Below, one piece after another: positions 23,341 to 54,518 of a stretch of DNA of 64,000 nucleotides (position 1 is its first letter; each line of letters begins with the position of its first letter). This DNA is from Candidatus Pacearchaeota archaeon (GTDB lineage: Archaea; Nanobdellota; Nanobdellia; Pacearchaeales; GW2011-AR1): positions 7,823 through 71,822 of the forward strand of contig JBAZOZ010000001.1 of NCBI GenBank assembly GCA_041648455.1, in the 5' to 3' direction. A model generated the notes under the pieces. The model did no database searches, was not told where the DNA came from, and saw nothing but the letters and a program-made list of their open reading frames with translations. Position numbers and translations under genes: made by a program.

Positions 23341-23429
23341 AATTTTTCCATGATGGAGTTATTTTTAAAATTAACGAGTATATTACAGATTATAACAAAT
23401 CTTTAAAACACATACATATAGAGAAATAC

Positions 23430-24113
23430 ATGATTGAATCAAAAAAAGAATACATCGTCATCCCGGCATACAACGAAGAAAAGAGTTTGGGGAAAGTTGT
23501 AGATGATTTAAGAAAAAATAAATTTGAAAATATAATCGTTGTTAATGATGGTTCTATAGACAATACATTTGAAGTTGCCAAGAACAAAAAAGTAAAGATA
23601 TATTCTCATATAATTAATCGCGGTTTGGGAGGAGCATTGAATACCGGAATTTCAGCAGCACTAATGAACCATGCAGATATTATTGCAACTTGCGACGCTG
23701 ATGGGCAGCACGACCCAATGGATGTTAAAAGAGCTATAGAATTTTTAAAAAAAGAAAATTTAGATGTTGTTATTGGTTCAAGGCTAATAAACTCAAAAGG
23801 AATGCCCATATCAAGAAGAATTATTAATTCTGGCGCTAGTTTTGTTACTCAATTATTATTTGGAATTTATTCAACAGACACCCAATCTGGATTGAGAGTT
23901 TTTACTAAAGAAGCTGCAGAAAAGATAATAATAAAAACAAATAAAATGGAAGTCTCGTCGGAGATTATTAAAGAAATAGGAAGGAATAAATTAAAATTTA
24001 AAGAAATTCCTATAAAAGCTATATACACTGATTATTCTATAGAAAAAGGCCAAAGAGGATTAAATGCTTTTAACATTGCATACAAACTTATGTTAAGGAA
24101 AATTATGAAATGA
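23430..24113 (+). CDS. GT2 polyprenol-phosphate glycosyltransferase (DPM1/GtrB-like)
   Basis: YIVIPAYNEEKSLGKVVDDL...IIVVNDGSIDNT...TCDADGQHDP is typical of dolichyl-phosphate mannose/glucose synthases. Confidence 0.8.
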   Translation: MIESKKEYIVIPAYNEEKSLGKVVDDLRKNKFENIIVVNDGSIDNTFEVAKNKKVKIYSHIINRGLGGALNTGISAALMNHADIIATCDADGQHDPMDVKRAIEFLKKENLDVVIGSRLINSKGMPISRRIINSGASFVTQLLFGIYSTDTQSGLRVFTKEAAEKIIIKTNKMEVSSEIIKEIGRNKLKFKEIPIKAIYTDYSIEKGQRGLNAFNIAYKLMLRKIMK

Positions 24114-24135
24114 AAAATTTTCAATTTTTCAATCA

Positions 24136-24180
24136 TTTAAACACTCACGCGACACGGCGTCACAGGAACGTGTTCAAATA
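24136..24180 (+). promoter_or_regulatory. palindromic box TTTAAACAC-N7-ACACGGCGTCAC-N5-CGTGTTCAAATA ending 2 nt before the ATG (copy 1 of 3)
   Basis: Near-identical copies at 39218..39261 and 40253..40297. Inner inverted repeat ACACGG/CCGTGT. TTTAAA could serve as a TATA box. Confidence 0.5.
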
Positions 24181-24182
24181 AA

Positions 24183-24506
24183 ATGATAATTCAATGGGTA
24201 ATCTTAATTTTAGTACTTTTTATGTATTTCAAACTTTTAATGGATTTGAAAAAAGGGAGAATTTCCTTGAGAAGATTTTTCTTTTGGTTGTTTATCTGGA
24301 CAGGACTTTCGTTAATTACATATTTTCCTCAAATAGTTTTCTTTTTTTCTAATTTAATTGGTATTGAAAGAGCCAAGGATTTGCCTATTTATGTTTCTAT
24401 AATTTTATTATTTTATCTATTATTCAAAATAAGTATAAGAATAGAAGAAATTGAACAGGGAATAACTAAAATAGTTAAAAAGATTGCGCTGGGAGTTAAG
24501 GAATGA
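24183..24506 (+). CDS. DUF2304-family small membrane protein (GtrA-like partner of DPM1-type GT2)
   Basis: 107 aa with 3 TM helices. Immediately downstream of the GT2. The hydrophobic pattern WVILILVLFMYFKLLMDLKKGRISLRRFFFWLFIW fits the family. Confidence 0.45.
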   Translation: MIIQWVILILVLFMYFKLLMDLKKGRISLRRFFFWLFIWTGLSLITYFPQIVFFFSNLIGIERAKDLPIYVSIILLFYLLFKISIRIEEIEQGITKIVKKIALGVKE

Positions 24507-24712
24507 AAATACAAAAATTAAAAATTTTTACCCTTCCACATGGAAAACAAGAAATTTTAGAAGAAATAAGAATTTTTTTACCACTTATGGAAAATAAGAA
24601 AAACAGAAAAGTTTTTCATCTCTCCAAATCAAGAAGATTTGAAGATAAGAAATTTTCTGTCCCATTCAAAATAGGAAATTTTGAAGACAAACATAGGAGA
24701 TGTTCGAGATGA
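24503..24712 (+). other. 69-codon mini-ORF / intergenic repeat element (paralogous to 57374..57505)
   Basis: MKIQKLKIFTLPHGKQEILEE... The first 45 nt are almost identical to 57374-57418. ATGA overlaps at both ends (24503/24506 and 24709/24712). Confidence 0.4.
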
Positions 24713-26184
24713 AAATAGAAAAGAAAATTATCTTTGTAAATCCACCCTCGGAGACAAAAATTATTAGAGAGGGAAGATGTGAACAAAGAGCAGATTCTTA
24801 TCAATATCTTATGGTTCCAATTTCTTTACCGTCGAGTGCGGCAGTTTTGCGTGAAGCTGATTTTGATGTTAAGATAATTGATTGTATTGCAGATGAAATA
24901 AATTTAAAAGAACTAGAAGAAATATTAAAAAAGGAATCTCCGTTTTTTGTTATCATTAATGTTGCTACTATGTCTTTTGCAAAAGATAAACTTGCTGCGG
25001 AAATTTGTAATAAATTGAAAATTCCGTGCGCAGCAATGGGAATGCATGTAACAACTCTTCCTGAAGAATCACTTAAAGAATCAAAATTTGATTTTGTTAT
25101 TCGTGGAGAACCAGAAATGACTGCATTAAATCTTGCAAAAGCAATTGGAAAAGATAATTTGTTAAAGCAAGTTAGAGGAATTAGTTATACAGAAAATAGG
25201 GAATTTTCTGTCTCACAAACTTCTAAGGGAAAACAAGAAGTTCGTGATAGAAAAAAGGAAAAAATAATTCATAATAAGGATGCTGAATTAATTCAGAATT
25301 TAGATGAATTGCCTTTTCCTGCCAGAGATTTATTAAAAAATGAAAAATATATTGAACCATTGACGCAAGATCCTTATACTCTTGTAATTACTGGTAGGGG
25401 TTGCCCATATGGTTGCATCTTTTGCACTGCAGATAAATATTATGGAAAAAAACAACGAATAAGAAGTCCTAAAAATATTGTGGATGAGATTGAAGAAATT
25501 ATAAGAAAATATGGAATTACTCATATTGGGATGTGGAATGATACATTCACCTTTAATAAAGAACAAGTAATAGGCATATCAAAAGAAATATTAAAAAGAA
25601 ATATTAAAATAATTTGGTTTTGCAACAGCAGAGTTGATACTTTCGACGAGGAAAGGGCAAAATGGATGTCCCAATCTGGATGTAAGGTAATAACTTTCGG
25701 AGTTGAGAGTTTGGACGAAGAAATTTTGAAAAGAGCAAAGAAAAATATAACTTTAGAACAAGTAAAGAACGCTGTTGAAATATGCAAGAGGTATAATATC
25801 GGAAGTCAACTACATTTGATATTCGGCTTGCCTGGAGAAACAGAAAAAACAATCGAAAACACAATAAAGAACGTCATAAAATTAGACCCCGACTATGCAC
25901 AATTTTATTGTGCCGTCCCATTTCCTGGAACAGAATTTAGAGAATATGTTTTAAAAAATAATTTTCTTAAAGAAGTTCCATGGAGCCAATATGAAATAAA
26001 TAACTCGCTGATTTCTTATCCTAATCTTTCCAGCAAGAAAATTCAATATGCAAGAAAAAAAGCATATAGAAAATTTTATCTAAGACCAAAATATATTCTT
26101 AAAAAAATGAAAAAATTCCCAATGAAAGAATGGAGGAAAATTTCTGTTCAAGCTTATAATTTTTTTAAGGGGTGGGTTTTCTAA
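24709..26184 (+). CDS. B12-binding domain radical SAM enzyme (start more likely 24709 than 24700)
   Basis: B12-like N-terminal domain (FFVIINVATMSF...AMGMHVT). Radical SAM cluster (TGRGCPYGCIFCTAD). Confidence 0.8.
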   Translation: MKIEKKIIFVNPPSETKIIREGRCEQRADSYQYLMVPISLPSSAAVLREADFDVKIIDCIADEINLKELEEILKKESPFFVIINVATMSFAKDKLAAEICNKLKIPCAAMGMHVTTLPEESLKESKFDFVIRGEPEMTALNLAKAIGKDNLLKQVRGISYTENREFSVSQTSKGKQEVRDRKKEKIIHNKDAELIQNLDELPFPARDLLKNEKYIEPLTQDPYTLVITGRGCPYGCIFCTADKYYGKKQRIRSPKNIVDEIEEIIRKYGITHIGMWNDTFTFNKEQVIGISKEILKRNIKIIWFCNSRVDTFDEERAKWMSQSGCKVITFGVESLDEEILKRAKKNITLEQVKNAVEICKRYNIGSQLHLIFGLPGETEKTIENTIKNVIKLDPDYAQFYCAVPFPGTEFREYVLKNNFLKEVPWSQYEINNSLISYPNLSSKKIQYARKKAYRKFYLRPKYILKKMKKFPMKEWRKISVQAYNFFKGWVF

Positions 26185-26195
26185 TTTAGTTAATT

Positions 26196-26645
26196 TTATT
26201 TATATTTTATAATATCATATATTATTGATAGTTTGAGAGTTTTTTCCCAATAAGTTGTTTGATCTACCAAATCTAAAAGCAAATGAAATCCAAATCCGAC
26301 AAAGATAAAAATAAAATAATTGAAGGCAAAAGAGAGAAAAATAAGAATTATCAAAACTTCTATTCCGTGAAAAATAAATATCTTCCTCGGCAATTTATTT
26401 CTTTCTTCCCAAGGCAAACTTCTGCAATATTTATCTTCTTGGATAAATAAATGATATGCTTCTTTTAGATTAAAATCTTTTTTTTTGTAAATATAAAATA
26501 AATAGTGATCAAAATCTATTAACACCGACGACAAAATTATTATTGAAAATCCAAAATAATTTATTTTTGGAAAGAGCAGGAAAAGTGCTGCGGCAAAAAC
26601 AAACCCGAAAAAAATATGTTGTTTTAGATACATTTTAACTCTCAA
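26196..26645 (-). CDS. small polytopic membrane protein (possible YdjM-like membrane-bound metal-dependent hydrolase)
   Basis: 149 aa with 4 TM helices. IDFDHY motif. Weak call. Confidence 0.3.
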   Translation of the reverse strand: MRVKMYLKQHIFFGFVFAAALFLLFPKINYFGFSIIILSSVLIDFDHYLFYIYKKKDFNLKEAYHLFIQEDKYCRSLPWEERNKLPRKIFIFHGIEVLIILIFLSFAFNYFIFIFVGFGFHLLLDLVDQTTYWEKTLKLSIIYDIIKYK

Positions 26646-28185
26646 TATTTTTTATTATTTCTGCAAATGCTGGCCGAGTTATTAATATTCCAACACTCAC
26701 CCCGATTATAGTTGTTATCGCGAATCCCTTTAACATTCCTGCACCTGCCCACATCAAAGGAAGCATTGCGGCGATTATTGTAAAAAATGCCCCTAAAATA
26801 ATAAATAAAGCTCGTTTTATTCTTTCTTTAATTCCAAGATTAATATTAGAAATTGATTCATCGATAATAACTATTTGGTCATTAACCCCCGTACCCATCC
26901 CTGCAATTATTCCTGCAATACTTGGTGCATCTAAATTCCAACTAATAAATGCTGCAATTCCCAATGTTATAAATGCCTCGGAAAACATAGTCATAATTAC
27001 GGATAAAGTAACTTTAAACTTTTTATAGGTAAAAAATAAAATTATAGAAATTATTGCAAAAACTAATAACGCCAATAAAATTATATTTTTTAAGAATTCT
27101 TTTCCTAAAGAAGGAGAAATTGTATCTAATTTTACTATTTTTAATTTGTAAGGCAAACTGCCAGTTATTAACACAGTTTGCAATTTATGCATAGATTCTG
27201 TTGCGCTATCATATGCTTCAGATTGTGTTGCACCACCTCCAGATCCTGAAATTTGTATTTGAGTTGTAACTCTCCCCTTAAGATCTTCGCTGATTAATAA
27301 ACTGTCAACTAATTTGTCATCGAGATATAAATCTAATTTTTGACTTAGATAATTTCCTTGCTGTGTTGAATTGACATCTAATTTTTTTGTTATCTCTGCG
27401 TGCCTTTCCGCGGCTTGCTGGCTTAGATAAACAGCAAATCTGAATGTACAAAAATAAATTCCATCCTGAGCTTTATTACAGGCTTCTATTCCTGCACAAG
27501 TAGCATCATTTCTACATACAGAAGATATATCTTTTTCACCTCCGATAAATACTGTTTCGTTTCCAATTTTAGCTTCGAATTTTCCCTGTTTTGAAATTAA
27601 ATCTTCTAAATCCTTCGGTGTTGCGCCCGCAATTTCAATAAGAATAAAACGATTTCCAGATAAATCTGAAACTGGAAGTATTTTCATATCACTTATACCA
27701 TAGACATTCATCCTATTTTCTATTACTGCAATTAAATCAGTAATTTCATTGGAAGAAAGTTTTTTCTCTTCTGCTTCTATGAGTGCACGGGAACCTCCAG
27801 ACAAATCCAAACCAGTTTGTATATTTGTTTTCTTAATAGTTGAAATGGTAATCTCGGGAACATTTCTTGAAAAATAAATTATCTCTAAATCTTTCGTTTT
27901 AAAAATAATTTTCTCGCTTTCGTTTGAATTAAATTTTCCTTCAAGAGATTCTGTAAAATCATCTATGTTTTCTATTTTTTTATCATCTATAAAAGTAATT
28001 ATTTGCCCTTGTCTAAATCCTTGTTCAAATGCGCTTGAATTCGCCTCGACGCTGGTTATTTCTATCCCTTTTTCCAAAGCTTTCCATGGAGAGATTGCTA
28101 AAAGTGCTAAAATTAATGCTATGATTAATATCCAAATTCTAAATCCAATTTTCATTTTATAAAAATCCTCCAGATTTTTAAACAT
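26635..28185 (-). CDS. secD: protein-export membrane protein SecD
   Basis: 516 aa. N-terminal TM helix, large extracytoplasmic domain and C-terminal 5-TM bundle (LFIILGAFFTIIAAMLPLMWAGAG...). Directly downstream of secF, the archaeal secF-secD order. Confidence 0.8.
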   Translation of the reverse strand: MFKNLEDFYKMKIGFRIWILIIALILALLAISPWKALEKGIEITSVEANSSAFEQGFRQGQIITFIDDKKIENIDDFTESLEGKFNSNESEKIIFKTKDLEIIYFSRNVPEITISTIKKTNIQTGLDLSGGSRALIEAEEKKLSSNEITDLIAVIENRMNVYGISDMKILPVSDLSGNRFILIEIAGATPKDLEDLISKQGKFEAKIGNETVFIGGEKDISSVCRNDATCAGIEACNKAQDGIYFCTFRFAVYLSQQAAERHAEITKKLDVNSTQQGNYLSQKLDLYLDDKLVDSLLISEDLKGRVTTQIQISGSGGGATQSEAYDSATESMHKLQTVLITGSLPYKLKIVKLDTISPSLGKEFLKNIILLALLVFAIISIILFFTYKKFKVTLSVIMTMFSEAFITLGIAAFISWNLDAPSIAGIIAGMGTGVNDQIVIIDESISNINLGIKERIKRALFIILGAFFTIIAAMLPLMWAGAGMLKGFAITTIIGVSVGILITRPAFAEIIKNIES

Positions 28186-28204
28186 GAAAAATCATAAAGA
28201 CTTT

Positions 28205-29125
28205 TCATTGTATTCCTTTCTTTTCACAATACCATTTAATTATGCTTACATTCGTAACCCAAGTATTCAAAATATCAGCAAGTAATCCTAACGCTAAAAT
28301 AAGAAAAATTTGCCTGAAGGAATTTGGAAGGGCAGTTATTAATAGAAAAGCTGGAAGAACTGCGGCCAAGGCAGTTAGTGTCATTAAAATTCCAGTTTTA
28401 AATGACCTAAAAATTCTGAAATTTAAACTTCCTTCTGAATTTTTCAAAACTCTTGTTGTTAAAAGTATATCTGTATCCACGCTATAACCAACTAGCATCA
28501 AGAATGCTGCTATTCCTGCTGCAGAAATTTTCATTCCAAAATAATCAATTAATGCCAAGGGCATTACTATATCTGCAAATACTGAAAAAATAACAGCAAT
28601 ACTCGGAATAAAAGTTCTGAATAAAATAAATATAACTAGGGACATTAAAATAAAAGATATGACTAATGCAAATATTAATTGTCTATAAAAATCCTTACTT
28701 AAACTTGAACCAGTAAACTCTATGCTTGAATTTTCGTCATTCAACGAATACCCCAAAATTTTTTCTATTTCTGGCTTTAACTCTTCTATTGAAGAAGAAC
28801 TTTGAATAACTAAAGCTATTGGTTTTCTCGTGGTCAAATCTGTAAGTTTATTAAAAGAAATTCCCGGAAATTCTTCTTCTAAACCTAATTCTAAATTAGT
28901 TGAATCTATATCTCCCTTCAGAGTAATAGTAGTTCCTCCAGAAAGAGAAACATCTCTTATGATAAAATCTCCCGTCCTCGAATAAAAACTAAAAAGATAA
29001 ACTAAAGAAATTATTAAAATGATTATCGGAACTAATAAAAATAATTTATAGTATTTGTCATGGAATTTTCCAAAATTGAATTTTTCTTTTTTAAGCGACT
29101 CTGCAGTTTGTTGTTCTGATTCCAT
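28205..29125 (-). CDS. secF: protein-export membrane protein SecF
   Basis: 306 aa. N-terminal TM helix, periplasmic domain and C-terminal 5-TM bundle (GILMTLTALAAVLPAFLLITALPNSFRQIFLILALGLLADI). Confidence 0.8.
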   Translation of the reverse strand: MESEQQTAESLKKEKFNFGKFHDKYYKLFLLVPIIILIISLVYLFSFYSRTGDFIIRDVSLSGGTTITLKGDIDSTNLELGLEEEFPGISFNKLTDLTTRKPIALVIQSSSSIEELKPEIEKILGYSLNDENSSIEFTGSSLSKDFYRQLIFALVISFILMSLVIFILFRTFIPSIAVIFSVFADIVMPLALIDYFGMKISAAGIAAFLMLVGYSVDTDILLTTRVLKNSEGSLNFRIFRSFKTGILMTLTALAAVLPAFLLITALPNSFRQIFLILALGLLADILNTWVTNVSIIKWYCEKKGIQ

Positions 29126-29254
29126 TAAAATATAGAAGAAATATGTTTTTTAAAGTTATTTATCAAGTTATAGTGAAAGACGTAAGTCTCTCCCTAAATA
29201 CTCAACGACAAATTGGGGAAATATCAATGTCGTTGACTATAATTAAATAAAAAT

Positions 29255-29325
29255 GCGCCGGCCGGGAATTGAACCCGGGCCCTCAGCTTGGAAGGCTGAC
29301 ATTCTACCGTTAAACCACCAGCGCA
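29255..29325 (-). tRNA. tRNA-Gly (anticodon UCC)
   Basis: Minus-strand GCGCTGGTGGTTTAACGGTAGAATGTCAGCCTTCCAAGCTGAGGGCCCGGGTTCAATTCCCGGCCGGCGCA. Full cloverleaf, loop CUUCCAA. CCA not encoded. Confidence 0.85.
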
Positions 29326-29360
29326 TAAATTAATCATCGCAAAAGAGTTTTAAAGTTTTA

Positions 29361-30545
29361 CTATCTTCTGGACTCTATTACTTCTTTAATCAGTCTAGAA
29401 AGAAACAACATGATAAACATGACTATTGCAAATAAAATAAAAAGATATTTGAATGGAAAAAATAAAAGCAAAATAGCAGAAGAAAAAGTTCCTAAAAGAT
29501 GACCAGTATCAACGGCAGTATTATAGATTCCATAATATTTGTCTCTTTGAGATTCTTTGATTATATCAAAAAAATATGCTTCAGTTGTTGGCTCTAGCAT
29601 AGAGACACCGACACTCGCAAGAACTAATAGAACAAGAACATAATAAAAATTGGGCATAAAAAAACTTAAAATAGAAAGAACCCCTATGATAAGATATCCG
29701 GTAAAAAATAATTTCTTAAATCCTTTTTTTGAGGCAATTCTTCCAAAAAAAGATTCCAGGAATACTAATGGAAGAACTATCATAGATAAAAATAAACCAA
29801 CCAAAAAACCACTATATCCATTATCAACAAGATATATTGGAATATAAATATAAATTAATGCCCACCAAAAATTTACGGCACCATGTAACAAATAGATTAT
29901 TGCTCTTTCTTTTTTAGAGAAAAAATTAACAAGAAGTTTAAATACATTATAATCTATCTTTTTTGTTTTTCTATTATCTCTAATTTTAAAAAAGGTGAAA
30001 GAAAAAATTGAGAGGAGTGCTAAAGCTGATGTTAAAATAAAAACCGGACCGAATCCATATCTTTGTGCAATATATCCTGCAATTAAAGGGGAAATTAACC
30101 AAGCTAAATTTAAAAGAGTATAAATGGTGGCTTCATTTTTTGAAACATCTTGATTCGGGGTTTTATCCCTAACTAAAATCCCGAAAGCCGTTATTCTTAA
30201 ACTCCCAACTATTGCTAAAATAGTTCCTAAAATAATAATCAAATAAAAATTAGTATAAAAAGCAAAAATAGAGTAAGAAATTACAAACAAGAGCAAAGAG
30301 AATATTACTAATTTTATTTTATTATATTTTTCAACAATTGGAATTAAAATCAAATAAGATAAAAATCCGACTACTGAAAAAAAGGTAGATAAAAAACCAA
30401 CTAAAGAAGAATTGTGAATTATAGATTCTAAAAAAATTGCCCAGATTGTTGAAACTGCTGCTGCACCCAAAGATAAAAATAAATAAGAAATACTAATTCT
30501 ATCTATGTTTTTCAGATTGTGCCCTCTTTTTCTAAAAAAATGCAT
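29361..30545 (-). CDS. MFS transporter
   Basis: 394 aa with 12 TM helices. A basic loop sits between TM6 and TM7. Confidence 0.7.
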   Translation of the reverse strand: MHFFRKRGHNLKNIDRISISYLFLSLGAAAVSTIWAIFLESIIHNSSLVGFLSTFFSVVGFLSYLILIPIVEKYNKIKLVIFSLLLFVISYSIFAFYTNFYLIIILGTILAIVGSLRITAFGILVRDKTPNQDVSKNEATIYTLLNLAWLISPLIAGYIAQRYGFGPVFILTSALALLSIFSFTFFKIRDNRKTKKIDYNVFKLLVNFFSKKERAIIYLLHGAVNFWWALIYIYIPIYLVDNGYSGFLVGLFLSMIVLPLVFLESFFGRIASKKGFKKLFFTGYLIIGVLSILSFFMPNFYYVLVLLVLASVGVSMLEPTTEAYFFDIIKESQRDKYYGIYNTAVDTGHLLGTFSSAILLLFFPFKYLFILFAIVMFIMLFLSRLIKEVIESRR

Positions 30546-30843
30546 GTCAATTTATGTAAAAAGAAGTTTTTAAATTATACAGAGAAATTAATTTTTACTC
30601 CTCAGAAATTCTTTTTTGTTCTTCTAAAGAAAGAAAAGCCCTATTTGGAAAAAGTGTCATAGTAGAGAATCTTCCATCTCTAGTCATATATCAAACTTCT
30701 TCAGAATAATCATTATTATCTCTTGGTGGACGAACATTTCTTCCTTTTGCTCTTTGTTCATACCAAATATTAATTCGTGAAAACATATTAAAGATAATTA
30801 AAAAGTATATTTAAAGATTATTACTTTCTGTTCAAATCCTAAA

Positions 30844-30918
30844 CGGCCTTGACAGGATTTGAACCTGCGACCCCTTCCTTAGGGGGGAAGTGCTCTATCC
30901 AGACTGAGCTACAAGGCC
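30844..30918 (-). tRNA. tRNA-Arg (anticodon CCU; unusual C at position 33)
   Basis: Minus-strand GGCCTTGTAGCTCAGTCTGGATAGAGCACTTCCCCCCTAAGGAAGGGGTCGCAGGTTCAAATCCTGTCAAGGCCG. Stem CTTCC/GGAAG, loop CCCCUAA. Confidence 0.7.
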
Positions 30919-30937
30919 AACATGATAATTTTTTAAA

Positions 30938-31231
30938 GTGGTTTCATATTTAAAAAATATGCTAATAAAGATTTTAGGGGCTTTCGATATAATTATTGGA
31001 GCTATCTTAATTTTTGGAACTGGATCAGATTTTCCATTGAGAGTTTTAATATTTCTGGCCGTGATTATGATAGCAAAATCTTCTCTTAGTTTTTGGCAAG
31101 ATTTTGGAAGTTGGGTTGATTTAGCTGTTGGATTTATTTTTTTATTAATGATAATTATTTCAATTCCGAAATTTATAGGAATTATTTTGGGAATTTTGGC
31201 AATTCAAAAAGGATTTATCAGTTTTTTGTGA
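30938..31231 (+). CDS. small membrane protein
   Basis: 97 aa with 3 TM helices. Confidence 0.35.
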   Translation: MVSYLKNMLIKILGAFDIIIGAILIFGTGSDFPLRVLIFLAVIMIAKSSLSFWQDFGSWVDLAVGFIFLLMIIISIPKFIGIILGILAIQKGFISFL

Positions 31232-31257
31232 ATTTTTATATTTAGGATTTTAAATAA

Positions 31258-31398
31258 TGCGGGAAGTAGGGATCGGACCTACGCAGGCACTAAGCCATCA
31301 GCTATCTCACGAGTATGCTCGTTATTAATCGAAAACGTTTGTCTTCGCGAACTCACTCGACCTTAGGCTGACCCATTTGACCACTCTGGCATTCCCGC
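31258..31398 (-). tRNA. tRNA-Leu with ~57-nt intron in the anticodon loop (anticodon UAA or AAG, register ambiguous)
   Basis: Acceptor GCGGGAA/TTCCCGC+A and T-arm GTAGG-TCCGATC-CCTAC. Class II variable arm and D-arm nearly identical to tRNA-Leu(CAA) at 43406. Exon 1 ends ...GGGTCAGCCTAAGG. The intron is rich in palindromes (TTCGCGAA, AAACGTTT). Confidence 0.7.
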
Positions 31399-31459
31399 CC
31401 AAAATTATAGAAATTATCAATATAAAAAGTTTTATAAACACATTCTTTCTTGAAATTTT

Positions 31460-31574
<115 letters not shown>

Positions 31575-31619
31575 ATATTCTCTTGAAGGTTTTATAAAAT
31601 ATAATTTCTTTGTTAATGG

Positions 31620-32105
31620 ATGAATAAAAAATCTTTATTAAAAGAAGTTGATGGAATTTATGGCAAATATAGGAAAATTATATGGAAAGAAATTCCCAAA
31701 AAAACAAAAGTTACATGGAAAATAAAAGAGATAAAATTTGAATCTTGGGATAGGGGTTATTGGGCTGCGGAAAATAATAAGATATTTGTGGGATATGACT
31801 ATAAACCAAAATCCAAGATATTAACTTCAATAATTCACGAAGCGATTCATCTAAACACAATTAATAAGAAAAATCAAAAAAGATTTAGTAATTCCGAAAA
31901 AAATGCTATCACCAGAGAAATTGCTACTTGTATTTTAACTAATTTTATCATTCAAAAAATAAATAAAAAGCTAAAGAAGAAATTCAAGAAAAATAGATTT
32001 GATGAGTGGTATAAAAAATATGAAGGAAAATCAAAAGAATTTGAAAAGTTGAGTGAGGATAAAAATTTCTATGAATTTTTTAGTATAATAAAAGAAAGAA
32101 TATAA
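31620..32105 (+). CDS. small HExxH-motif protein (putative zinc metalloprotease-like)
   Basis: 161 aa. IIHEAIHLN is the only recognisable motif. No TM segment. Confidence 0.3.
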   Translation: MNKKSLLKEVDGIYGKYRKIIWKEIPKKTKVTWKIKEIKFESWDRGYWAAENNKIFVGYDYKPKSKILTSIIHEAIHLNTINKKNQKRFSNSEKNAITREIATCILTNFIIQKINKKLKKKFKKNRFDEWYKKYEGKSKEFEKLSEDKNFYEFFSIIKERI

Positions 32106-32380
32106 TGAATAAAAAACTTTCAAAAACAGAAGCTCTGAAAGAAATTGAAAATTTTTTTAAAGACATCCAAGGTAAAACACCGAAGGAAATTAAAAAAATT
32201 AAGAAACTTGCGATGTCTTACAATATTCCCTTGAAAGAAAAAAGAAAATTATTCTGCAAGAAATGTTTTGCAATTTATAAAAATCCCAAGATAAGAATAA
32301 AAAATAAAATGAAGTCAGTGACGTGTGAGAATTGTGGAAATGTTGGGAGATGGAAGATAGGAAAGATTAATAATTCTTAA
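32105..32380 (+). CDS. rnp4: RNase P protein subunit Rpp21/Rpr2 (zinc ribbon)
   Basis: 91 aa. KLAMSYNIPLKEKRKLFCKKCFAIY...VTCENCGNVGRW reproduces the Rpp21 pattern (LA..y.....kr.fCk.C...l.pG....C..Cg). Confidence 0.7.
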   Translation: MNKKLSKTEALKEIENFFKDIQGKTPKEIKKIKKLAMSYNIPLKEKRKLFCKKCFAIYKNPKIRIKNKMKSVTCENCGNVGRWKIGKINNS

Positions 32381-32768
32381 CTAAACGTATTTCATCATCT
32401 TTGAGAAATCCTTTTTCCCTTAAATTATTAATTTGTTCCTTAGAGATTTCTTCAAATCCAATTTTTTTATGTGCTTTAATAGAAGCCGAGTTTGACTTTT
32501 TAATAGTCGCGAATAATGTTTTAATTTTATATTTTTTTACTAAAAGATCTTCTGCTTGTTTTACTAATCCCTTTCCTCTGAATTCTAATGCTAAAATAAT
32601 TTGAACAAAACCAGCATGGGCCGGAAATCTTGCTGGAATAAATCCAATGATACCTATTTTTTTATTATCAACTATAACTGTGTAATAAGTAGCTCTTGTG
32701 TCGAGTGGAAGTTTTTTATTATCTGAAATTGATTCATAAAACTCTTTATCAAATTTTTTGAGTTGCAT
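32367..32768 (-). CDS. GNAT family N-acetyltransferase
   Basis: IILALEFRGKGLVKQAEDLL matches acetyl-CoA binding motif A (R/Q-x-x-G-x-G/A). Confidence 0.7.
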   Translation of the reverse strand: MQLKKFDKEFYESISDNKKLPLDTRATYYTVIVDNKKIGIIGFIPARFPAHAGFVQIILALEFRGKGLVKQAEDLLVKKYKIKTLFATIKKSNSASIKAHKKIGFEEISKEQINNLREKGFLKDDEIRLVKNY

Positions 32769-32798
32769 AAGTAATATAAGAATAACTAGATTAAAAAA

Positions 32799-32996
32799 TT
32801 AACTTTTCTTAAATCTTCCAGTAAGTTCGATCAAATCTTCGTGGCCGAGGAAAATACTTCTGCAACAAAATCTTTCCAAACCAAGCTCATCCAATACTTT
32901 CGACGAAGATTCACCCTGTGCTGTTCTTTTCTTGAATTCTTCCCATAAATGACCAATTGGCTTTCCACATGAGAAACATCTAACTGGAATTATCAT
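32799..32996 (-). CDS. rpoN: DNA-directed RNA polymerase subunit N (Rpo10/Rpb10)
   Basis: MIIPVRCFSCGKPIGHLWEEF...LGLERFCCRSIFLGHEDLI is near-identical to the archaeal RpoN consensus. Confidence 0.9.
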   Translation of the reverse strand: MIIPVRCFSCGKPIGHLWEEFKKRTAQGESSSKVLDELGLERFCCRSIFLGHEDLIELTGRFKKS

Positions 32997-33055
32997 AATA
33001 TTATTCCTTCAAAGTGGTTTAAAAAGTTTTGTATTAGTTAAATTTATAAAATCTA

Positions 33056-33598
33056 ATGAGGGAGAATTTAGACATGGTAAATAAAATAATGAGACTTGGA
33101 AAATTAGAAATTGATTTAAAAGAATTATCTAAATTTTTAGTCGGGGCTAAAAAAAATTGCTATGCTGGAAATGGTGAAGAAAAAAGATTATCTGATGGTT
33201 CAAAAATCTTAACTTTTCAAGAAGGAAATTTTCATTATGAAGATAATTATGATGGCTTTTATCAAGCTCCTGGAAGAGAATTGGTAAGATGGAAAAACGA
33301 AAACGGGCAGAGAATCTGGCAAATGTCTTATTGTGGAGGAATGAATCCAGAATATTTTAGAAACAAAAAATTTAGTGAAGATGTTTTTAGATTTTTGAAA
33401 ATCGCGCTGGGACGAGTTAGTGAAGAGATGCCTTTTAGAGGACCAGAACAATATGAATGGAATATAAATGGGTGGAATTATAGTTCCAATATAATTGGTG
33501 ATGTAAAAAGATTTATAGGTAATGAATTTATAAAAGCACCATCTGAAGATATTTTATTTTCATTAGACTTTATTGGGGGTTTATTTACTCCAAAATGA
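33056..33598 (+). CDS. hypothetical protein
   Basis: 180 aa, soluble. The stop overlaps the start of the following mini-ORF (ATGA). Confidence 0.4.
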   Translation: MRENLDMVNKIMRLGKLEIDLKELSKFLVGAKKNCYAGNGEEKRLSDGSKILTFQEGNFHYEDNYDGFYQAPGRELVRWKNENGQRIWQMSYCGGMNPEYFRNKKFSEDVFRFLKIALGRVSEEMPFRGPEQYEWNINGWNYSSNIIGDVKRFIGNEFIKAPSEDILFSLDFIGGLFTPK

Positions 33599-33648
33599 AA
33601 AAAACAAAAAGTTTTTTGCCTTTTCAAAATAGGAAGTTTTTAAGATGA
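33595..33648 (+). other. 17-codon lysine-rich mini-ORF / repeat unit ([17 protein letters not shown]), ATGA-coupled on both sides
   Basis: Near-identical copies at 39081 and 43967. TGA at 33646 overlaps the ABC ATPase ATG at 33645. Confidence 0.4.
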
Positions 33649-34397
33649 AAAATAAAGAAAACAAGAATATAATTGAATTAAGGAATGTTGCAAGATATTA
33701 CGAGATGGGAGAATCTTTAGTTAAAGCTCTTGATTGTGTTGACATCAAAATTGAAGAGGGAGATTTTGTAGCAATTATGGGGCCGAGTGGAAGCGGGAAA
33801 TCAACGAGCATGAATCTAACTGGAAGTTTAGATTATGCAACGCACGGAGATATTTTTCTTGATGGAATAAATATTGAAAATATGACTGAATCTGAGCTTG
33901 CACAATTAAGGGGGAAGAAAATAGGATTTATTTTTCAGCAATTTAATCTTATTCCAAATTTAACTGCAAAAGAAAATGTTATGCTTCCAATGATGTTTCA
34001 GGGAATTGACATTGAAGAAAGAAAAGAAAAAGCAGAAGAAGTTTTGAAAATGGTTGAACTTTCTGATAGGGTGGATTTTTATCCTAACCAACTTTCGGGA
34101 GGACAACAGCAAAGAGTTGCGATTGCTCGTGCACTTGCAAATAATCCAGAAGTCATTCTTGCCGACGAGCCAACAGGAAATCTTGACACGAGAACAGGAG
34201 AGATTGTTATGAAATTCTTGAACAAATTAAATGAAGAAGGAAAAACAATAATCATTGTTACTCACGACCCAAATGTTGCAAGAAACCATGCTAAGATAAT
34301 TTACTCTTTAAGGGATGGGAAGGTTGAAGCTGTGGAAAAAAAGATGAATGGAAAGTGGAAGAAAACTTCTATGAAAGAATGTGTCCCAAAGAAATAA
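33645..34397 (+). CDS. ABC transporter ATP-binding protein (MacB/LolD-type)
   Basis: Walker [10 protein letters not shown]. Signature [15 protein letters not shown]. Walker [12 protein letters not shown]. Confidence 0.9.
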
Positions 34398-35374: not shown

Positions 35375-35682
35375 ATATGGAAATATCTCAAGAATTTAGA
35401 AACCAAATTAAATCAAGTTTATTAAGAATAGTTTTACTTACTTCCGTAACTACTGTGGTTGCCATAGGTATCTCTAAATATCAAAATAAGGAAAAATCTC
35501 AACAAAAATCAAAATTAATTCAAAAAGTTCGATCACCTCCTCCAACACCTACTGTTTTTAGAAATGATAATGGAACGACAAATACTATTTATGCTCATAG
35601 AGATGCTAAAGGACAACTTTATTTTGATAATAATCCATCTACAGATAGTTTAGTTGAAAAATATGAATATGATTGGAGGTAA
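35371..35682 (+). CDS. small membrane protein
   Basis: 103 aa with one TM helix. Start overlaps the upstream stop. Confidence 0.35.
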   Translation: MNMEISQEFRNQIKSSLLRIVLLTSVTTVVAIGISKYQNKEKSQQKSKLIQKVRSPPPTPTVFRNDNGTTNTIYAHRDAKGQLYFDNNPSTDSLVEKYEYDWR

Positions 35683-35688
35683 CTCCAG

Positions 35689-36906
35689 ATGATTCTCGAT
35701 TATTTTAAACTCGCCTTGGGAAATTTGAGGCATAGAGGAATTAGATCGTGGTTGACAATTCTTGGAATCTTTATTGGAATTGCTGCAGTTGTTGCTTTGA
35801 TTTCTATGGGAGCTGGATTAAAATCGGCAGTCATAGGACAATTTGGAGCGCTTTCGGTAGATAAACTCACAATTCAAAATAAGGGAACTGGATTTGGACC
35901 TCCAGGAAGCACAGTTGTTGAAAAATTAAATAATCATGATATTCAAATTATAGAAAATGTTCGGAGAGTTGATTTAGTTATTCCGAGATTAATTCGAATT
36001 GCCAAAGTAGAATATAATAAAATTCCAACTTATACTTACATTACAGATCTTCCAGATACTTCGAAAAAAATGGATTTGGTTTACGAATCTTTTAATGTTA
36101 TGGTCAGCGACGGAAGATTATTAAGGCCAGATGATAGTGGAAAAATTTTAATTGGAGCGGATTTTGCGAAAACAAAAACTTTTGAAAAAGATTTAGCTGT
36201 TGGAAAAAATATACAAATTAATGGAAAAGATTTTCAAATTATTGGAATCTTAGAAAAATCAAGTAGTCTCCAATTAAATAATGTTATTTTAATGCCGACA
36301 AAAGATTTGCAAGAACTTTTAGGAATTAAAGACGAATGGGATTTGATTGTTGCACAAGTTCATGATAAAAATAAAATTCAAGAAGTTGCAAAAGATATAG
36401 AAAATGCACTAAGAAAAGACAGGAATGAAAAAATTGGTGGGGAAACTTTCAGTGTTCAAACTCCCTTGCAAGCACTTGGAGCAGTTAATACTATATTAAA
36501 TATAATTAATGCAATTGTCGTCGGTATCGCGATGATTTCTCTTGTTGTTGGTGGTGTTGGAATTGCAAATACGATGTATACTTCAGTTATAGAAAGAACA
36601 AAAGAAATTGGAATTATGAAAGCAATTGGAGCTAAGAACAAAGATATTTTATGGATATTTTTAATTGAGTCTGGTTTGCTCGGATTGGTTGGTGGAATCG
36701 TAGGAGCATTGATAGGTTTGGGGGGAGCAATTGGAATTTCAAATATTGCAAACAGCGCGTTAGGAAATGATTTATTTAAGGTAACAGTTTCTTATCCATT
36801 ATTATTTGCAGCAATTTCATTTTCATTTATTCTTGGAATTATCTTCGGTGTTTTTCCTGCTTTGCAAGCAAGTAAATTAAAACCAGTTGAGGCGTTGAGA
36901 AAATAA
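35689..36906 (+). CDS. ABC transporter permease, FtsX/MacB family
   Basis: N-terminal TM helix, large extracytoplasmic domain and C-terminal 3-TM FtsX domain (SVIERTKEIGIMKAIGAKNKDILWIFLIESGLLG). Confidence 0.85.
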   Translation: MILDYFKLALGNLRHRGIRSWLTILGIFIGIAAVVALISMGAGLKSAVIGQFGALSVDKLTIQNKGTGFGPPGSTVVEKLNNHDIQIIENVRRVDLVIPRLIRIAKVEYNKIPTYTYITDLPDTSKKMDLVYESFNVMVSDGRLLRPDDSGKILIGADFAKTKTFEKDLAVGKNIQINGKDFQIIGILEKSSSLQLNNVILMPTKDLQELLGIKDEWDLIVAQVHDKNKIQEVAKDIENALRKDRNEKIGGETFSVQTPLQALGAVNTILNIINAIVVGIAMISLVVGGVGIANTMYTSVIERTKEIGIMKAIGAKNKDILWIFLIESGLLGLVGGIVGALIGLGGAIGISNIANSALGNDLFKVTVSYPLLFAAISFSFILGIIFGVFPALQASKLKPVEALRK

Positions 36907-36907
36907 A

Positions 36908-37216
36908 ATGGAAGAAAGGACAACAATTCAAGGAAAATTAGAATTAAAAATTCGTGGAGAAGGTGTTTGTGGAGAATTGGAATTAACTTATATGCCCATT
37001 GAAAATATAGAAGGAGCACAAAATATTAATTGTACAATGAAAACAACAATAAATGCAAGAGATTATTTGAGTTTAGCAAAAGATGTAAATAATATAGTTA
37101 GAGGGTTTGGATGTTCTGTTGGATTAAGGAATACAAAATATGATTTACAGGTAGTAGGGGATAAAAAAGAATTTGAGCAAGAAGATATAGATTATATTGC
37201 GGAGTTAATAAAATGA
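36908..37216 (+). CDS. small soluble protein encoded between the two permease genes
   Basis: 102 aa. Both ends overlap the flanking permease genes. Confidence 0.35.
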   Translation: MEERTTIQGKLELKIRGEGVCGELELTYMPIENIEGAQNINCTMKTTINARDYLSLAKDVNNIVRGFGCSVGLRNTKYDLQVVGDKKEFEQEDIDYIAELIK

Positions 37217-38820: not shown

Positions 38821-39078
38821 ATGGTTCAAAGAAAAAATGTTAGGTCTAGGGGAAAATTGCAATTCAGCAAATATTTCCAAGAATTTGAGAAGGGAGATAG
38901 CGTAGCAATTAATAGAGAAAGATCAATAAATTCAAATTTTCCAAAAAGATTGCAAGGAAGAACTGGAAAAATCGATGGAAAAAAAGGGAGAGTATATATA
39001 ATTAAAATCAAGGATCTTGAAAAAGAAAAAAAATTTTTAATAGAACCTATACATTTAACGAAAATCAAAAATCAATAA
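38821..39078 (+). CDS. rpl21e: 50S ribosomal protein L21e
   Basis: VRSRGKLQFSKYFQEFEKGDSVAI...RLQGRTGKIDGKKGRVYIIKIKD follows the L21e consensus (..R.r..f.r.f...G.....Y...kGD.VdI....HGKTGrV). Confidence 0.85.
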   Translation: MVQRKNVRSRGKLQFSKYFQEFEKGDSVAINRERSINSNFPKRLQGRTGKIDGKKGRVYIIKIKDLEKEKKFLIEPIHLTKIKNQ

Positions 39079-39080
39079 AA

Positions 39081-39134
39081 ATGAAAAAAACAAGAAGTTT
39101 TTTGCCTTTTAAAAACGGGAAGTTTTCAAAATGA
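39081..39134 (+). other. 17-codon mini-ORF / repeat unit (MKKTRSFLPFKNGKFSK)
   Basis: Copy of the 33595 and 43967 units. TGA at 39132 overlaps the next ATG at 39131. Confidence 0.4.
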
Positions 39135-39265
39135 TGAAAATAAGAAATTTTCAAACATGTCAGAAATCCTCACGAAAAGGGATTTCTGAACACCTTCCAA
39201 ATTTTACAATTTGGAAGTTTAAACACTTACGCTACACGGCGTCACGGAACCGTGTTCAAATATGA
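39131..39265 (+). ncRNA. ~135-nt three-hairpin intergenic element (type B); also readable as a 44-codon ORF ending in ATGA with rpoF
   Basis: Hairpins at 39160-39188 (10-bp stem), 39194-39217 (10-bp stem) and 39232-39256. Homologous to 40176..40301 with compensatory base changes. Confidence 0.45.
39218..39261 (+). promoter_or_regulatory. palindromic box TTTAAACAC...ACACGGCGTCAC...CCGTGTTCAAATA (copy 2 of 3), abutting the rpoF ATG
   Basis: Same motif as 24136..24180 and 40253..40297. Confidence 0.5.
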
Positions 39266-39567: not shown

Positions 39568-39635
39568 TGAAAAAATAGATTTTTTCAATCTATTCAAATT
39601 TAAAAATAGAAATCCAAAATTTAAATATAAAAAAA

Positions 39636-40172: not shown

Positions 40173-40175
40173 AAA

Positions 40176-40301
40176 ATGAAAATAAGAAATTTTCAATCAC
40201 GTCAGAAATCCTCTAGATTTCTGAACGCCATCCAAATTGTGAAATTTGGATGTTTAAACACCCACACAACACGGCGTCACAGACCCGTGTTTAAATAAAA
40301 T
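40176..40301 (+). ncRNA. ~126-nt three-hairpin intergenic element (type C), paralog of 39131..39265; also readable as a 40-codon ORF
   Basis: Same first 21 nt (ATGAAAATAAGAAATTTTCAA). Hairpins TCAGAAATC/GATTTCTGA and CATCCAAATT/AATTTGGATG. Confidence 0.45.
40253..40297 (+). promoter_or_regulatory. palindromic box TTTAAACAC...ACACGGCGTCAC...CCGTGTTTAAATA (copy 3 of 3), abutting the rps13 ATG
   Basis: See 24136..24180. Confidence 0.5.
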
Positions 40302-40800
40302 GGAAATAAAAAACCAACTCGTAGAGGCAAGAGAGGATAGGGTAGTTAGAATTATGTCAAAAGATATAGAAGGTAAAATGAGTGTTTATTCTGGATTAGC
40401 AAAAATAAAAGGAATTTCATGGGGTTTTTCAAATGCAATATGTAATTCATTAGGACTTGATAAAAAAAGAAAAATTGGGTTGTTAAGTACAGAAGAAATA
40501 AATAAAATTTCTGAATTTATAAAAAATCCGAAAGTTCCACCATTTTTATTAAATAGAAGAAAAGATTTTCAATCTGGAGAAGACATACACCTAAATGGGA
40601 GCAATCTTGAATTACAACAAGAATTCGATATTAAAAGATTGAAGAAAATAAAAAGTTATCGTGGTTTAAGACACATGAGTAACCTTCCCGTAAGAGGACA
40701 AAGAACAAAAAGTCATTTTAGAAAAAATAGAAGAAAAGGAAGTGGAATTAAAAAGAAAGCGAAGAAAGAAGGAGAGGTAAAAAAATATGAAAAAAATTGA
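40300..40800 (+). CDS. rps13: 30S ribosomal protein S13
   Basis: VVRIMSKDIEGKMSVYSGLAKIKGI...IKSYRGLRHMSNLPVRGQRTKSHFRKNRRKG follows the S13 consensus. Confidence 0.9.
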   Translation: MEIKNQLVEAREDRVVRIMSKDIEGKMSVYSGLAKIKGISWGFSNAICNSLGLDKKRKIGLLSTEEINKISEFIKNPKVPPFLLNRRKDFQSGEDIHLNGSNLELQQEFDIKRLKKIKSYRGLRHMSNLPVRGQRTKSHFRKNRRKGSGIKKKAKKEGEVKKYEKN

Positions 40801-40888
40801 AAATTTTTTGCCTCTTAAACTTGGGAAAAGTTCAAAATACAGAAAATCAGGAAAATTTTCTGTCTCATTAAAAATAGGAAATTTTTAA
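40787..40888 (+). other. 33-codon mini-ORF / repeat unit (MKKIENFLPLKLGKSSK...KIGNF) between rps13 and rps4
   Basis: Starts inside the last codons of rps13 (+1 frame). Ends 1 nt before the rps4 ATG. Confidence 0.35.
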
Positions 40889-43601: not shown

Positions 43602-43970
43602 ATGAAATCAAAAACCAGAATAGAAAAACAAACAAAAAGAAAAACAAATCCCAATTTAGTTGAAACTATTAGAAATGCTAGAAAAAATAAAAAATGGCTA
43701 GAAGTGGCTGGTTTGCTTTCCAATTCAAGAAAAAAAAGGGCAGAAATTAATTTGGACAGAATAAATAAGGAAGCAAAAGAAGGAGATATTGTTGTCGTTC
43801 CGGGAAAAGTTTTGTCTCAAGGGGAATTAACTAAAAAAATAAAGATTATAGCATTTGGTTTTTCAGAAAATGCAAGGGAAAAGATATTAAAATCAAAAAG
43901 TGAATTAAATTATATCTATGACGAAATTAAGAAAAATCCAGAAGCGAAAGGAGTTAAGATTTTAAAATGA
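43602..43970 (+). CDS. rpl18e: 50S ribosomal protein L18e
   Basis: KTNPNLVETIRNARKNKKWLEVAGLLSNSRKKRAEINLDRIN...VVVPGKVLSQGEL matches L18e. Confidence 0.85.
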   Translation: MKSKTRIEKQTKRKTNPNLVETIRNARKNKKWLEVAGLLSNSRKKRAEINLDRINKEAKEGDIVVVPGKVLSQGELTKKIKIIAFGFSENAREKILKSKSELNYIYDEIKKNPEAKGVKILK

Positions 43971-44020
43971 AAAAAACAAGAAATTTTTCACTTTTTCAAA
44001 ATAGGAAATTTTTAAAATGA
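43967..44020 (+). other. 17-codon mini-ORF / repeat unit (MKKTRNFSLFQNRKFLK) bridging rpl18e and rpl13 by two ATGA overlaps
   Basis: ATG at 43967 overlaps the rpl18e TGA. TGA at 44018 overlaps the rpl13 ATG at 44017. Confidence 0.4.
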
Positions 44021-49238: not shown

Positions 49239-49327
49239 CTTTTATCCAATATTCTCGGGTTTTTAAGAATTTCTATAGAAAAATAGCTATTTTCCTCTCT
49301 TTTGTGCACATAGGTTAGGTTCATGCA

Positions 49328-54026: not shown

Positions 54027-54518
<492 letters not shown>

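Follow-up and report, generated by a model that had tools for sequence, protein, structure and literature searches.

Why should one and the same 45-nt palindromic box stand directly before the start codons of a DUF2304 gene, of rpoF and of rps13? The question is raised by a 64,000-nt stretch of contig JBAZOZ010000001.1 from a Candidatus Pacearchaeota archaeon (hereafter the window), in which an earlier inspection of the letters (the sequence-only reading) had noticed three such boxes sharing a core. It took them for promoters with a regulator-binding dyad, placing a glycosylation gene, rpoF and rps13 under common control, or alternatively for the 3′ module of a family of repeats. We find that the box forms the conserved 3′-terminal hairpin module in a family of small, mosaic elements built of hairpins, ~66 to 175 nt long and without a transposase gene, and that it is not a gene-specific regulator shared by the DUF2304 gene, rpoF and rps13. 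We consider it probable that this mosaic repeat is tolerated, or used, because translation is relayed across it by termination-reinitiation.

The three copies are readily recognized by a common pattern. The pattern TTTAAACAC-N7-ACACGGCGTCAC-N5-CGTGTTYAAAT matches the window (29% G+C) exactly three times, always on the forward strand (24136-24179, 39218-39261 and 40253-40296), and is absent from 100 dinucleotide-preserving shuffles even with 3 mismatches tolerated; the 12-mer core alone has 3 window matches versus 0.25 expected. The spacers of 7 and 5 nt are identical in length in all three copies, such that the variable spacing of 4 or 5 nt first described for the box reflects only the choice of where its 3′ arm starts. 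The outer arms TTTAAACAC/GTGTTTAAA and the alternative inner arms ACACGG/CCGTGT, the two inverted repeats of the sequence-only reading, are both found in the box. From the end of the box to the ATG of what we will call the host gene there are 0 to 2 nt in each copy, and Pfam identifies the three hosts as DUF2304 (24183-24506, E = 1.6e-20), RNA_pol_Rpb4, i.e., RpoF (39262-39567, E = 7.6e-07), and Ribosomal_S13 (40300-40800, E = 5e-34). The copies are as follows, with related loci designated by L numbers here and below.

24136..24180, plus strand: box copy 1, TTTAAACAC-TCACGCG-ACACGGCGTCAC-AGGAA-CGTGTTCAAATA, ending 2 nt before the DUF2304 ATG at 24183
39218..39261, plus strand: box copy 2, flush against the rpoF ATG
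40253..40297, plus strand: box copy 3, with an orthologous copy at the same junction in L017, L018 and L026

Is the box an ancestral feature of these gene starts? We compared the window with contigs of close relatives showing 80 to 90% protein identity. At the junction of the GT2 and DUF2304 genes, the two genes overlap by ATGA in L019, L020 and L022 (...ATGAAATGATAAT...) and are 5 nt apart in L021, and none of these four has a box; between identical flanks, the window carries the following insertion.

24114..24186, plus strand: 73-nt insertion relative to the relatives' GT2/DUF2304 junction, with the direct repeat AAATGA at 24108-24113 and 24181-24186

Likewise, the L21e and RpoF genes overlap or lie no more than 28 nt apart in seven relatives, all without a box, as compared to 183 nt in the window. 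The gap between the DUF655 and S13 genes measures 1 to 12 nt, again with no box, in L012 to L015, L023 and L025; it is filled by a different module in L016, and by the same composite element as in the window in L017, L018 and L026. The window's box insertions relative to these contigs range from 73 to 183 nt. There is also an example of the opposite kind: L005, syntenic with window positions 25744-33809, carries a box element at one junction that is free of it in the window. Modules other than the box behave similarly: L18e and L13 overlap by ATGA in L012 and are separated in the window by a 50-nt insertion of a non-box type. With junctions present in both states among close relatives, the box is a lineage-variable insertion and not an ancestral control site.

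Two further junctions deserve mention in their own right. In L024, the 27-nt gap between the DUF655 and S13 genes (1443-1469) ends in AGTGTTTAAATAAAATG, which matches the 3′ arm and tail of the box alone; an element may have been deleted here down to this remnant. An insert of 62 to 68 nt with the hairpin GAAAAAAT-AG-ATTTTTTC separates rpoF from the DUF655 gene in the window (39568-39635), L016 (4266-4330) and L025 (148-209), and is absent from five others.

A wider motif search, as suggested by the sequence-only reading, places the box before unrelated genes elsewhere too. Using the pattern AACAC-N7-ACACGGCGTCAC-N5-CGTG, we obtained matches in one of 185,579 species-representative genomes (GTDB), a Candidatus Woesearchaeota metagenome-assembled genome (MAG), and in 10 metagenome contigs; viral contigs scanned with a degenerate box pattern gave 0 matches. 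A variant copy, that of L017, was recovered by synteny, while the relatives L023 to L026 yielded empty sites, one possible remnant and one duplicate of L017, i.e., no new variant copies. All 13 distinct copies of the resulting collection have the same architecture, and each abuts a start codon on its own strand, that of a different gene in every case. The hosts outside the window, named from N-terminal sequences and contexts (the Pfam check having been made for window genes), include L23, S19, L22, an exosome Rrp42-like protein, CDC48, a pilin-like protein and a small membrane protein, and the carriers (11 contigs besides the window) are DPANN archaea of the Pacearchaeota/Woesearchaeota type. 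Surveys of REP-like palindromes extend to Euryarchaeota and Crenarchaeota, not to DPANN (PMC12306157), and we located no description of such elements in the literature.

These distributions bear on the promoter/operator interpretation, in which TTTAAA would be a TATA box giving a 15- to 20-nt leader and the dyad the operator of a common regulator, e.g., a winged helix-turn-helix (wHTH) protein. TTTAAACAC is indeed TATA-like, the arms do form an inverted repeat, and the 8-mer GTGTTTAA occurs 12 times in the window versus 3.07 expected, with 4 further copies upstream of the wHTH-like ORF (open reading frame) at 51311. To define what a promoter looks like in this lineage, we examined 36 first genes with divergent transcription, drawn from the window and related loci. 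In 17 of them, a TATA-like hexamer begins at −29 to −27 from the ATG, against a near-zero background elsewhere, which is the signature of leaderless transcripts. In the box, by comparison, TTTAAA starts at −47, −44 and −47 in copies 1, 2 and 3, so that the hexamer is upstream as first described though slightly farther than the ~40 nt given then, and the 3′ TTYAAAT starts at −13/−10; neither position suits the lineage. Moreover, several of the collected copies have ATTAAAC or ATAAAC in place of TTTAAAC, a half-site spacing of 27 nt is atypical for a dimeric regulator, and compensated changes in the arms favor base pairing over two independent protein half-sites. The orthologous junctions of relatives are ATGA overlaps or tight gaps without a box, and elsewhere the box precedes the genes of L23, S19, L22, CDC48 and a pilin-like protein. 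We therefore regard a TATA box with a shared operator as very improbable, although the box may have weak, incidental promoter activity. What stands from the sequence-only reading is its alternative: the copies are polymorphic, multi-locus insertions, and the box occurs only as part of repeat copies regardless of gene context, a result which that reading had itself set against common control.

Among 70 genes of the window, 22 have a TATA hexamer at −29 to −27, 12 are coupled (within 5 nt) and 5 have a Shine-Dalgarno (SD)-like motif. The promoter motif itself, (C/G)TTTAAAA or TTTATAAA, ends 21 nt before the ATG (e.g., 23402-23408, 30567-30574 and 54048-54055), a strict positioning from which most mRNAs are expected to be leaderless. 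As a separate observation on possible regulator sites, positions 51040-51200 hold 4 direct copies of GGTGTTTAA in two pairs, each pair after GGTTTTATGG, upstream of the wHTH-like ORF 51311-51958; the 8-mer GTGTTTAA within these repeats is also the 3′ arm of the box. With a Cdc6/Orc1 gene at 54519-55727, these could be regulator or origin-type repeats.

How far does the inserted element extend beyond the box? Copies 2 and 3 share ~80 nt of further upstream sequence with three hairpins, H1, H2 and H3, which makes the box the 3′ part of a longer repeat; copy 1 has a rearranged H1 only. In 5′ to 3′ order, the element consists of an ATG, H1 (GAAAAT-NNNNN-ATTTTC), optionally H2 and H3, the box, (T)AAATA(AA) and the host ATG. 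Its hairpins in the window are the following.

24112..24130, plus strand: H1-like rearranged 5′ hairpin of copy 1, GAAAAATTTTC AATTTTTC
39136..39152, plus strand: H1 hairpin of composite copy 2, GAAAAT-AAGAA-ATTTTC
39161..39188, plus strand: H2 hairpin of composite copy 2, CAGAAATCC...GGATTTCTG
39194..39217, plus strand: H3 hairpin of composite copy 2, CTTCCAAATT-TTAC-AATTTGGAAG
40178..40194, plus strand: H1 hairpin of composite copy 3
40203..40223, plus strand: H2 hairpin of composite copy 3, with a shorter loop than in copy 2 and L017
40229..40252, plus strand: H3 hairpin of composite copy 3

The second stem pair of H3 is T-A in copy 2 and A-T in copy 3, a compensated change. Related A/T-rich hairpin modules fill many other co-directional gene junctions of the window, and H1, H2, H3, the box and a further module, A, recur in varying combinations, as is typical of the mosaics formed by repetitive extragenic palindromes (REP) and bacterial interspersed mosaic elements (BIME). 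With its small size, multiple copies, lack of a transposase and insertion polymorphism, the element also has features of MITEs (miniature inverted-repeat transposable elements). The alternating orientation of REP/BIME-type repeats is not seen: all 13 of 13 box copies are oriented like their host gene.

The element also carries an open reading frame. In each copy, a frame that begins with an ATG within ...AAAATGAAAAT... continues through every hairpin and the box, and the stop codon of this mini-ORF (TAA or TGA) lies between −4 (ATGA overlap) and +5 nt from the host ATG in 12 of 12 complete copies. In 12 box elements plus 8 further hairpin modules, amounting to 619 codons, we found 0 internal stops in the ATG frame, as compared to 35 to 57 in each of the five other frames. 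Mini-ORF chains strictly bridge 6 of the 25 co-directional gaps of the window versus 0.84 expected from shuffles, and three more under looser rules; in the reverse complements of the gaps, used as a control, only one was bridged, and a different one. The mini-ORFs belonging to the three box copies are listed first, followed by those of other hairpin modules.

24110..24181, plus strand: mini-ORF 1, 23 codons and TAA, its ATG overlapping the GT2 stop (ATGA)
39131..39265, plus strand: mini-ORF 2, 44 codons and TGA, spanning H1, H2, H3 and the box, which is read in frame a
40176..40298, plus strand: mini-ORF 3, 40 codons and TAA, reading the box in frame b
39081..39134, plus strand: module-A hairpin mini-ORF (MKKTRSFLPFKNGKFSK), starting 2 nt after the L21e stop and ATGA-chained to mini-ORF 2
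33595..33648, plus strand: related module-A mini-ORF of 17 codons with an ATGA overlap at each end and a different 3′ module
43967..44020, plus strand: module-A mini-ORF between L18e and L13, a 50-nt insertion at the junction whose ATGA overlap is intact in L012
44403..44602, plus strand: a chain of two hairpin mini-ORFs, each of 33 codons, between L13 and S9, all three joints being ATGA; the L012 gap is 1 nt
24503..24712, plus strand: 69-codon hairpin mini-ORF between the DUF2304 gene and a radical-SAM gene, with ATGA at both ends
40787..40888, plus strand: 33-codon hairpin mini-ORF between S13 and S4, its stop 1 nt before the S4 ATG at 40890; the L012 gap is 2 nt

At the box copies, the joints are similarly tight. 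Mini-ORF 1 crosses the box in frame b, with 1 nt between its stop and the DUF2304 ATG; mini-ORF 2 overlaps the stop of the module-A mini-ORF with its ATG and the rpoF ATG at 39262 with its TGA (ATGA in both cases); and mini-ORF 3 follows the stop of DUF655 at a distance of 3 nt, its own stop being 1 nt short of the S13 ATG at 40300. At the DUF2304/radical-SAM junction, where the two genes are adjacent or overlapping in relatives, the true start of the radical-SAM gene is 24709. On the upstream side, the mini-ORF ATG lies −4 to +4 nt from the preceding stop in 9 of 13 copies, which places these copies inside tight operons, including the S10/spc-type cluster of ribosomal protein genes.

Since the mini-ORF ATG occupies the original start position of the host gene, it inherits the initiation signal of the host, be this a stop overlap, an SD sequence or the TATA distance of a leaderless transcript. 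Each kind is represented: the overlap with an upstream stop in copy 1 and L009, GGAG 3 to 7 nt before the mini-ORF ATG in L003, L005, L009 and L010, and, in L011, whose element stands first in a transcription unit beside a divergent gene, TTTATA at −27 relative to the mini-ORF ATG. Between the box and the host ATG there is no SD sequence for the host.

Could the mini-ORF simply encode a conserved small protein (MKIGNFQSIKHLRNTASHYRV-like), with the box as its coding sequence? Its frame is always open and its start codon has a good initiation context. Yet the box is crossed in two frames, a (KH.R.TAS..RV) and b (LNT.ATRRH..VFK), which differ even between the orthologous copies 3 and L017, and the frame remains open despite the indels that switch between them; hence no peptide is conserved. 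Variable positions in the box show no wobble bias. A mini-ORF peptide profile searched against 5.8 billion proteins found no family and one chance match (P0121, E = 1.9), indicating that the mini-ORFs are not in that protein collection; no extra copies were gained. On account of the frame switching, we reject a conserved small protein, giving it almost no credence.

A more fitting role for the frame is suggested by how archaeal and bacterial genes are coupled. Termination-reinitiation coupling, as studied in Haloferax and Escherichia coli, is nearly abolished when stop and start are ~20 nt apart (PMC10666635). Because coupling needs such short distances, an insert of 70 to 200 nt in an ATGA overlap would uncouple the two genes unless it carried an ORF to bridge them. 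The junctions between element and host have the form of coupled ORFs, lying on one strand with stop and start overlapping or a few nt apart. We envisage that ribosomes would initiate on the mini-ORF via the old signal of the host gene, melt the hairpins as they translate, terminate within the 3′ arm of the box or shortly after it, and then re-initiate on the ATG of the host. Such a relay would keep expression alive in a lineage that depends less on SD sequences than on leaderless starts and stop/start coupling. More speculatively, the box hairpin might refold behind the terminating ribosome and bias re-initiation downstream, and the invariant ACACGGCGTCAC might be the recognition site of a trans-acting factor, either a mobilizing enzyme or an RNA- or ribosome-binding partner.

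Inserts of another kind at these junctions are also of interest here. At the S13/S4 junction, L014 (2093-2197) and L015 (2006-2257) have non-hairpin ORFs of 34 and 83 codons, respectively, chained to both neighbors through an overlap or a gap of 1 nt. It seems that any sequence between these coupled genes is bridged by an ORF.

Two further RNA-based readings were rejected. A C/D-box small RNA (ATGATGA...CTGA in copy 2) is not supported by copy 3, which lacks the C box, and its spacings are wrong, as judged by eye. Splicing of the element at a bulge-helix-bulge motif is at odds with the always-open frame, which argues for translation, and we saw no junction pairing by eye.

If the element were nothing but a translated insert, what would be expected of its RNA structure? 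The 9-bp outer stem is paired in 92% of alignment cells and has three pairs with compensated double changes (L003, L009 and L017), a level of compensation reached by only 2 of 500 shuffles. RNAalifold favors the alternative inner helix, (N)ACACG/CGUGU(U). Outer and inner helix share one 3′ strand and are thus mutually exclusive; three coordinated changes in L017 (AAACAC>AAACAT, ACACGG>ACATGG and CGTGTT>CATGTT) keep both. The 12-mer ACACGGCGTCAC has one substitution in the 13 distinct copies, the C-to-T of L017 (ACATGG). Finally, the orthologous copies 3 and L017 are identical at 107 of 124 positions (86%), as compared to third codon positions in the neighboring genes, of which 65% (DUF655) and 59% (S13) are identical, with the differences being in loops or spacers or else compensated. 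The element is therefore either constrained in place or homogenized by gene conversion.

It is from these observations that a second interpretation draws its strength, namely, that the box or the hairpin chain is an exapted cis-acting RNA, a host mRNA signal that tunes downstream re-initiation, processing or stability, with the mini-ORF as a part of it or secondary. It might take the form of a two-state switch (UUUAAACAC/GUGUUUAAA outer versus ACACGG/CCGUGU inner) or of a binding site for a protein or the ribosome. The in-place conservation, the compensated or loop-confined changes, the retention of both helices in L017, the near-invariant core and the fixed distance to the ATG all favor it. 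On the other hand, most close relatives do without the box at the orthologous junctions, meaning that these genes do not require it, and the host genes are functionally unrelated. Fold z-scores of the element's simple form reach only −1.8 to −2.6, and gene conversion among copies could mimic conservation. Nor do hairpin mismatches on the sense strand favor G.U over A.C (18 versus 25), a count that is uninformative as to pairing at the RNA or DNA level. Rfam, run on the whole window at the gathering threshold, passes only tRNAs and 5S rRNA; at an E-value threshold, the best hit in 39000-40400 scores 23.9 bits versus a threshold of 43 bits, i.e., no family. On balance, we think an exapted host signal rather unlikely as the primary explanation.

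The window holds another conserved structure. A relatively G+C-rich noncoding stretch of ~125 nt at 57541-57665, within a region of hairpin modules, is 84% identical to L010 5225-5349 (minus strand), and so is found in two genomes. It has a minimum free energy of −38.6 kcal/mol (z = −4.8), with 0 of 200 shuffles folding as well. As Rfam has no match for it, this strongly structured stretch is a candidate for an undescribed small RNA.

Several observations weigh against a mosaic repeat that persists through relayed translation. Conservation in place is unexpected for a purely selfish, decaying insertion and points to a host-level or RNA-level role beyond the relay idea alone, and the near-invariance of ACACGGCGTCAC is accounted for neither by pairing nor by coding. 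The covariation in the outer stem comes from single sequences only (L003, L009 and L017), and the collection comprises only 13 copies. In the rpoF/DUF655 insert described above, the mini-ORF is broken after 3 codons (MKK*), yet the insert is kept in three genomes. Translation of the mini-ORFs and re-initiation behind them are predicted from sequence. As regards mobility, the element has no terminal inverted repeats, its ends being ATGAAAAT... and ...TTTAAATAAAATG and its palindrome internal to the 3′ module, and no unambiguous target-site duplication was found around the inserts. Direct repeats of 6 to 12 nt including the ATG do flank them (AAATGA, AAAATG, ATGAAAA and TTTTAAAATGA), possibly as parts of the element or as microhomology. 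There is no cognate transposase in the window, as its sole transposase, DDE_Tnp_1 (49605-50534), has unrelated flanking motifs (TGTGCACTTAGGTTA), and no Y1_Tnp/HUH match was obtained among 30 scanned window ORFs or in the gene tables of the relatives' loci. The word mobile consequently refers to presence/absence and multi-locus distribution only.

The DDE_Tnp_1 gene (Pfam E = 2e-13) lies between long noncoding stretches (49239-49604 and 50535-51310). Near it, TGTGCAC(A/T)TAGGTTA occurs at ~49303, 50598 and 50950, possibly as insertion sequence (IS) ends or solo ends, and has no sequence in common with the box.

Might a site-specific recombinase act on the box instead, making it an attC-like (integron- or Xer-like) site and the flanking genes cassettes? 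An imperfect palindrome of attC-like size between co-oriented genes would suit this idea, there is a tyrosine recombinase gene elsewhere in the window's syntenic region, and short ORFs in attC hairpins are known to rescue downstream translation (PMC8876359). What speaks against it is that the flanks are core ribosomal and RNA polymerase genes in an order conserved with or without the element, that the arms, (T/A)TTAAACAC...GTGTT(T/C)AAA, do not by eye fit the RYYYAAC/GTTRRRY consensus, and that there is no array structure. We hold a recombination site to be extremely improbable.

The repeat-and-relay interpretation can be taken one step further, and here we are tentative. Possibly, the elements are undescribed archaeal translational relay cassettes: start-codon-homing repeats kept by selection at the level of the host, in which a throw-away mini-ORF captures the initiation signal of the gene and is combined with a conserved, structured box RNA that, through the invariant ACACGGCGUCAC and two exclusive helices, hands the ribosome on much as a TURBS (termination upstream ribosome-binding site) does. 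Should re-initiation be actively promoted by the box RNA, no such element would have been described in archaea before, and the box would be a compact part for polycistronic expression.

Irrespective of this, a false lead has been removed, for there is no shared regulon of glycosylation, RNA polymerase and ribosome genes. It appears that, between the coupled genes of these reduced DPANN genomes, an insertion lasts only if it has a bridging ORF; this amounts to a natural experiment on the degree to which translation relies on stop/start coupling and leaderless starts where SD sequences are rare. There are practical consequences as well, since the elements mislead gene callers through spurious small ORFs, misplaced start codons and apparent 5′ untranslated regions, and inflate counts of intergenic regulatory motifs in MAGs. 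The precise start-codon site and the sense-only orientation pose the question of how the element spreads.

Two tandem duplications were seen elsewhere in the window. An exact tandem repeat with a 21-nt unit (GATGTGCTGGAATTATCTGTT) in at least 3.7 copies lies at 52566-52642, within ORF 52102-52887 (minus strand). A tandemly duplicated gene pair (35689-36906 and 37213-38424; also 35377-35682 and 36908-37216), with 71 to 76% DNA identity over the repeats, consists of MacB_PCD/FtsX permease genes as judged by synteny with L012.

How does the element compare with known systems? With an archaeal promoter, i.e., the TFB recognition element (BRE) and TATA box plus an operator dyad, it shares the A/T-rich TTTAAA and an inverted repeat upstream of the ATG; it differs in that the box is at the wrong distance for the lineage, is absent from orthologous junctions and has compensated arm changes. 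Among small palindromic repeats, the start-codon-abutting mosaic with its relay mini-ORF may represent a new form, with a possible additional role at the RNA level. Like REP/BIME, BOX, Correia and ERIC repeats and MITEs, it consists of short, multi-copy, modular hairpins between cotranscribed genes whose presence varies among strains; unlike REP/BIME and MITE families, no terminal inverted repeats, alternating orientation, REP-associated tyrosine transposase (RAYT) or parent IS were identified for it, and the strict start-codon position and obligatory open frame are foreign to the REP/BIME, BOX and MITE families. The TURBS of caliciviruses is a conserved, structured stretch of ~40 to 80 nt directly upstream of a stop/restart site, and pairs with 18S rRNA. 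The box would resemble the TURBS in that a structured stretch stands just before stop and restart; neither the window nor the related loci contain a 16S rRNA gene.

The closest functional analogue is provided by integrons, in which the short ORFs of attI1 (ORF-11, ORF-17 and ORF-18) and of attC hairpins rescue downstream translation by termination-reinitiation, the peptide sequence being unimportant (PMC8876359). The likeness lies in a sequence-irrelevant ORF within a hairpin-forming site between genes, whose structure is melted; attI1 and attC, however, belong to bacterial cassette capture with an integrase and GTTRRRY cores, whereas the element described here occupies start codons in archaeal core operons, differs in sequence and is without a known recombinase. 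Small palindromic repeats are likewise found in Rickettsia, whose palindromic elements survive by translational compatibility with host frames (PMC10969869). These are fused in-frame inside host proteins and have a conserved encoded peptide, while here the mini-ORF is separate, with its own start and stop, is chained to its neighbors by ATGA or within 5 nt, and the frame of the box is not fixed. The junction geometry (−4, +1 to +5 nt) is that of the termination-reinitiation coupling described at ATGA overlaps (Huber et al. 2019, 2023; PMC6728339; PMC10666635). In those known cases, the coupled partners are two real genes; here, a nonconserved relay ORF supplied by a repeat is interposed between them, and sometimes two in series.

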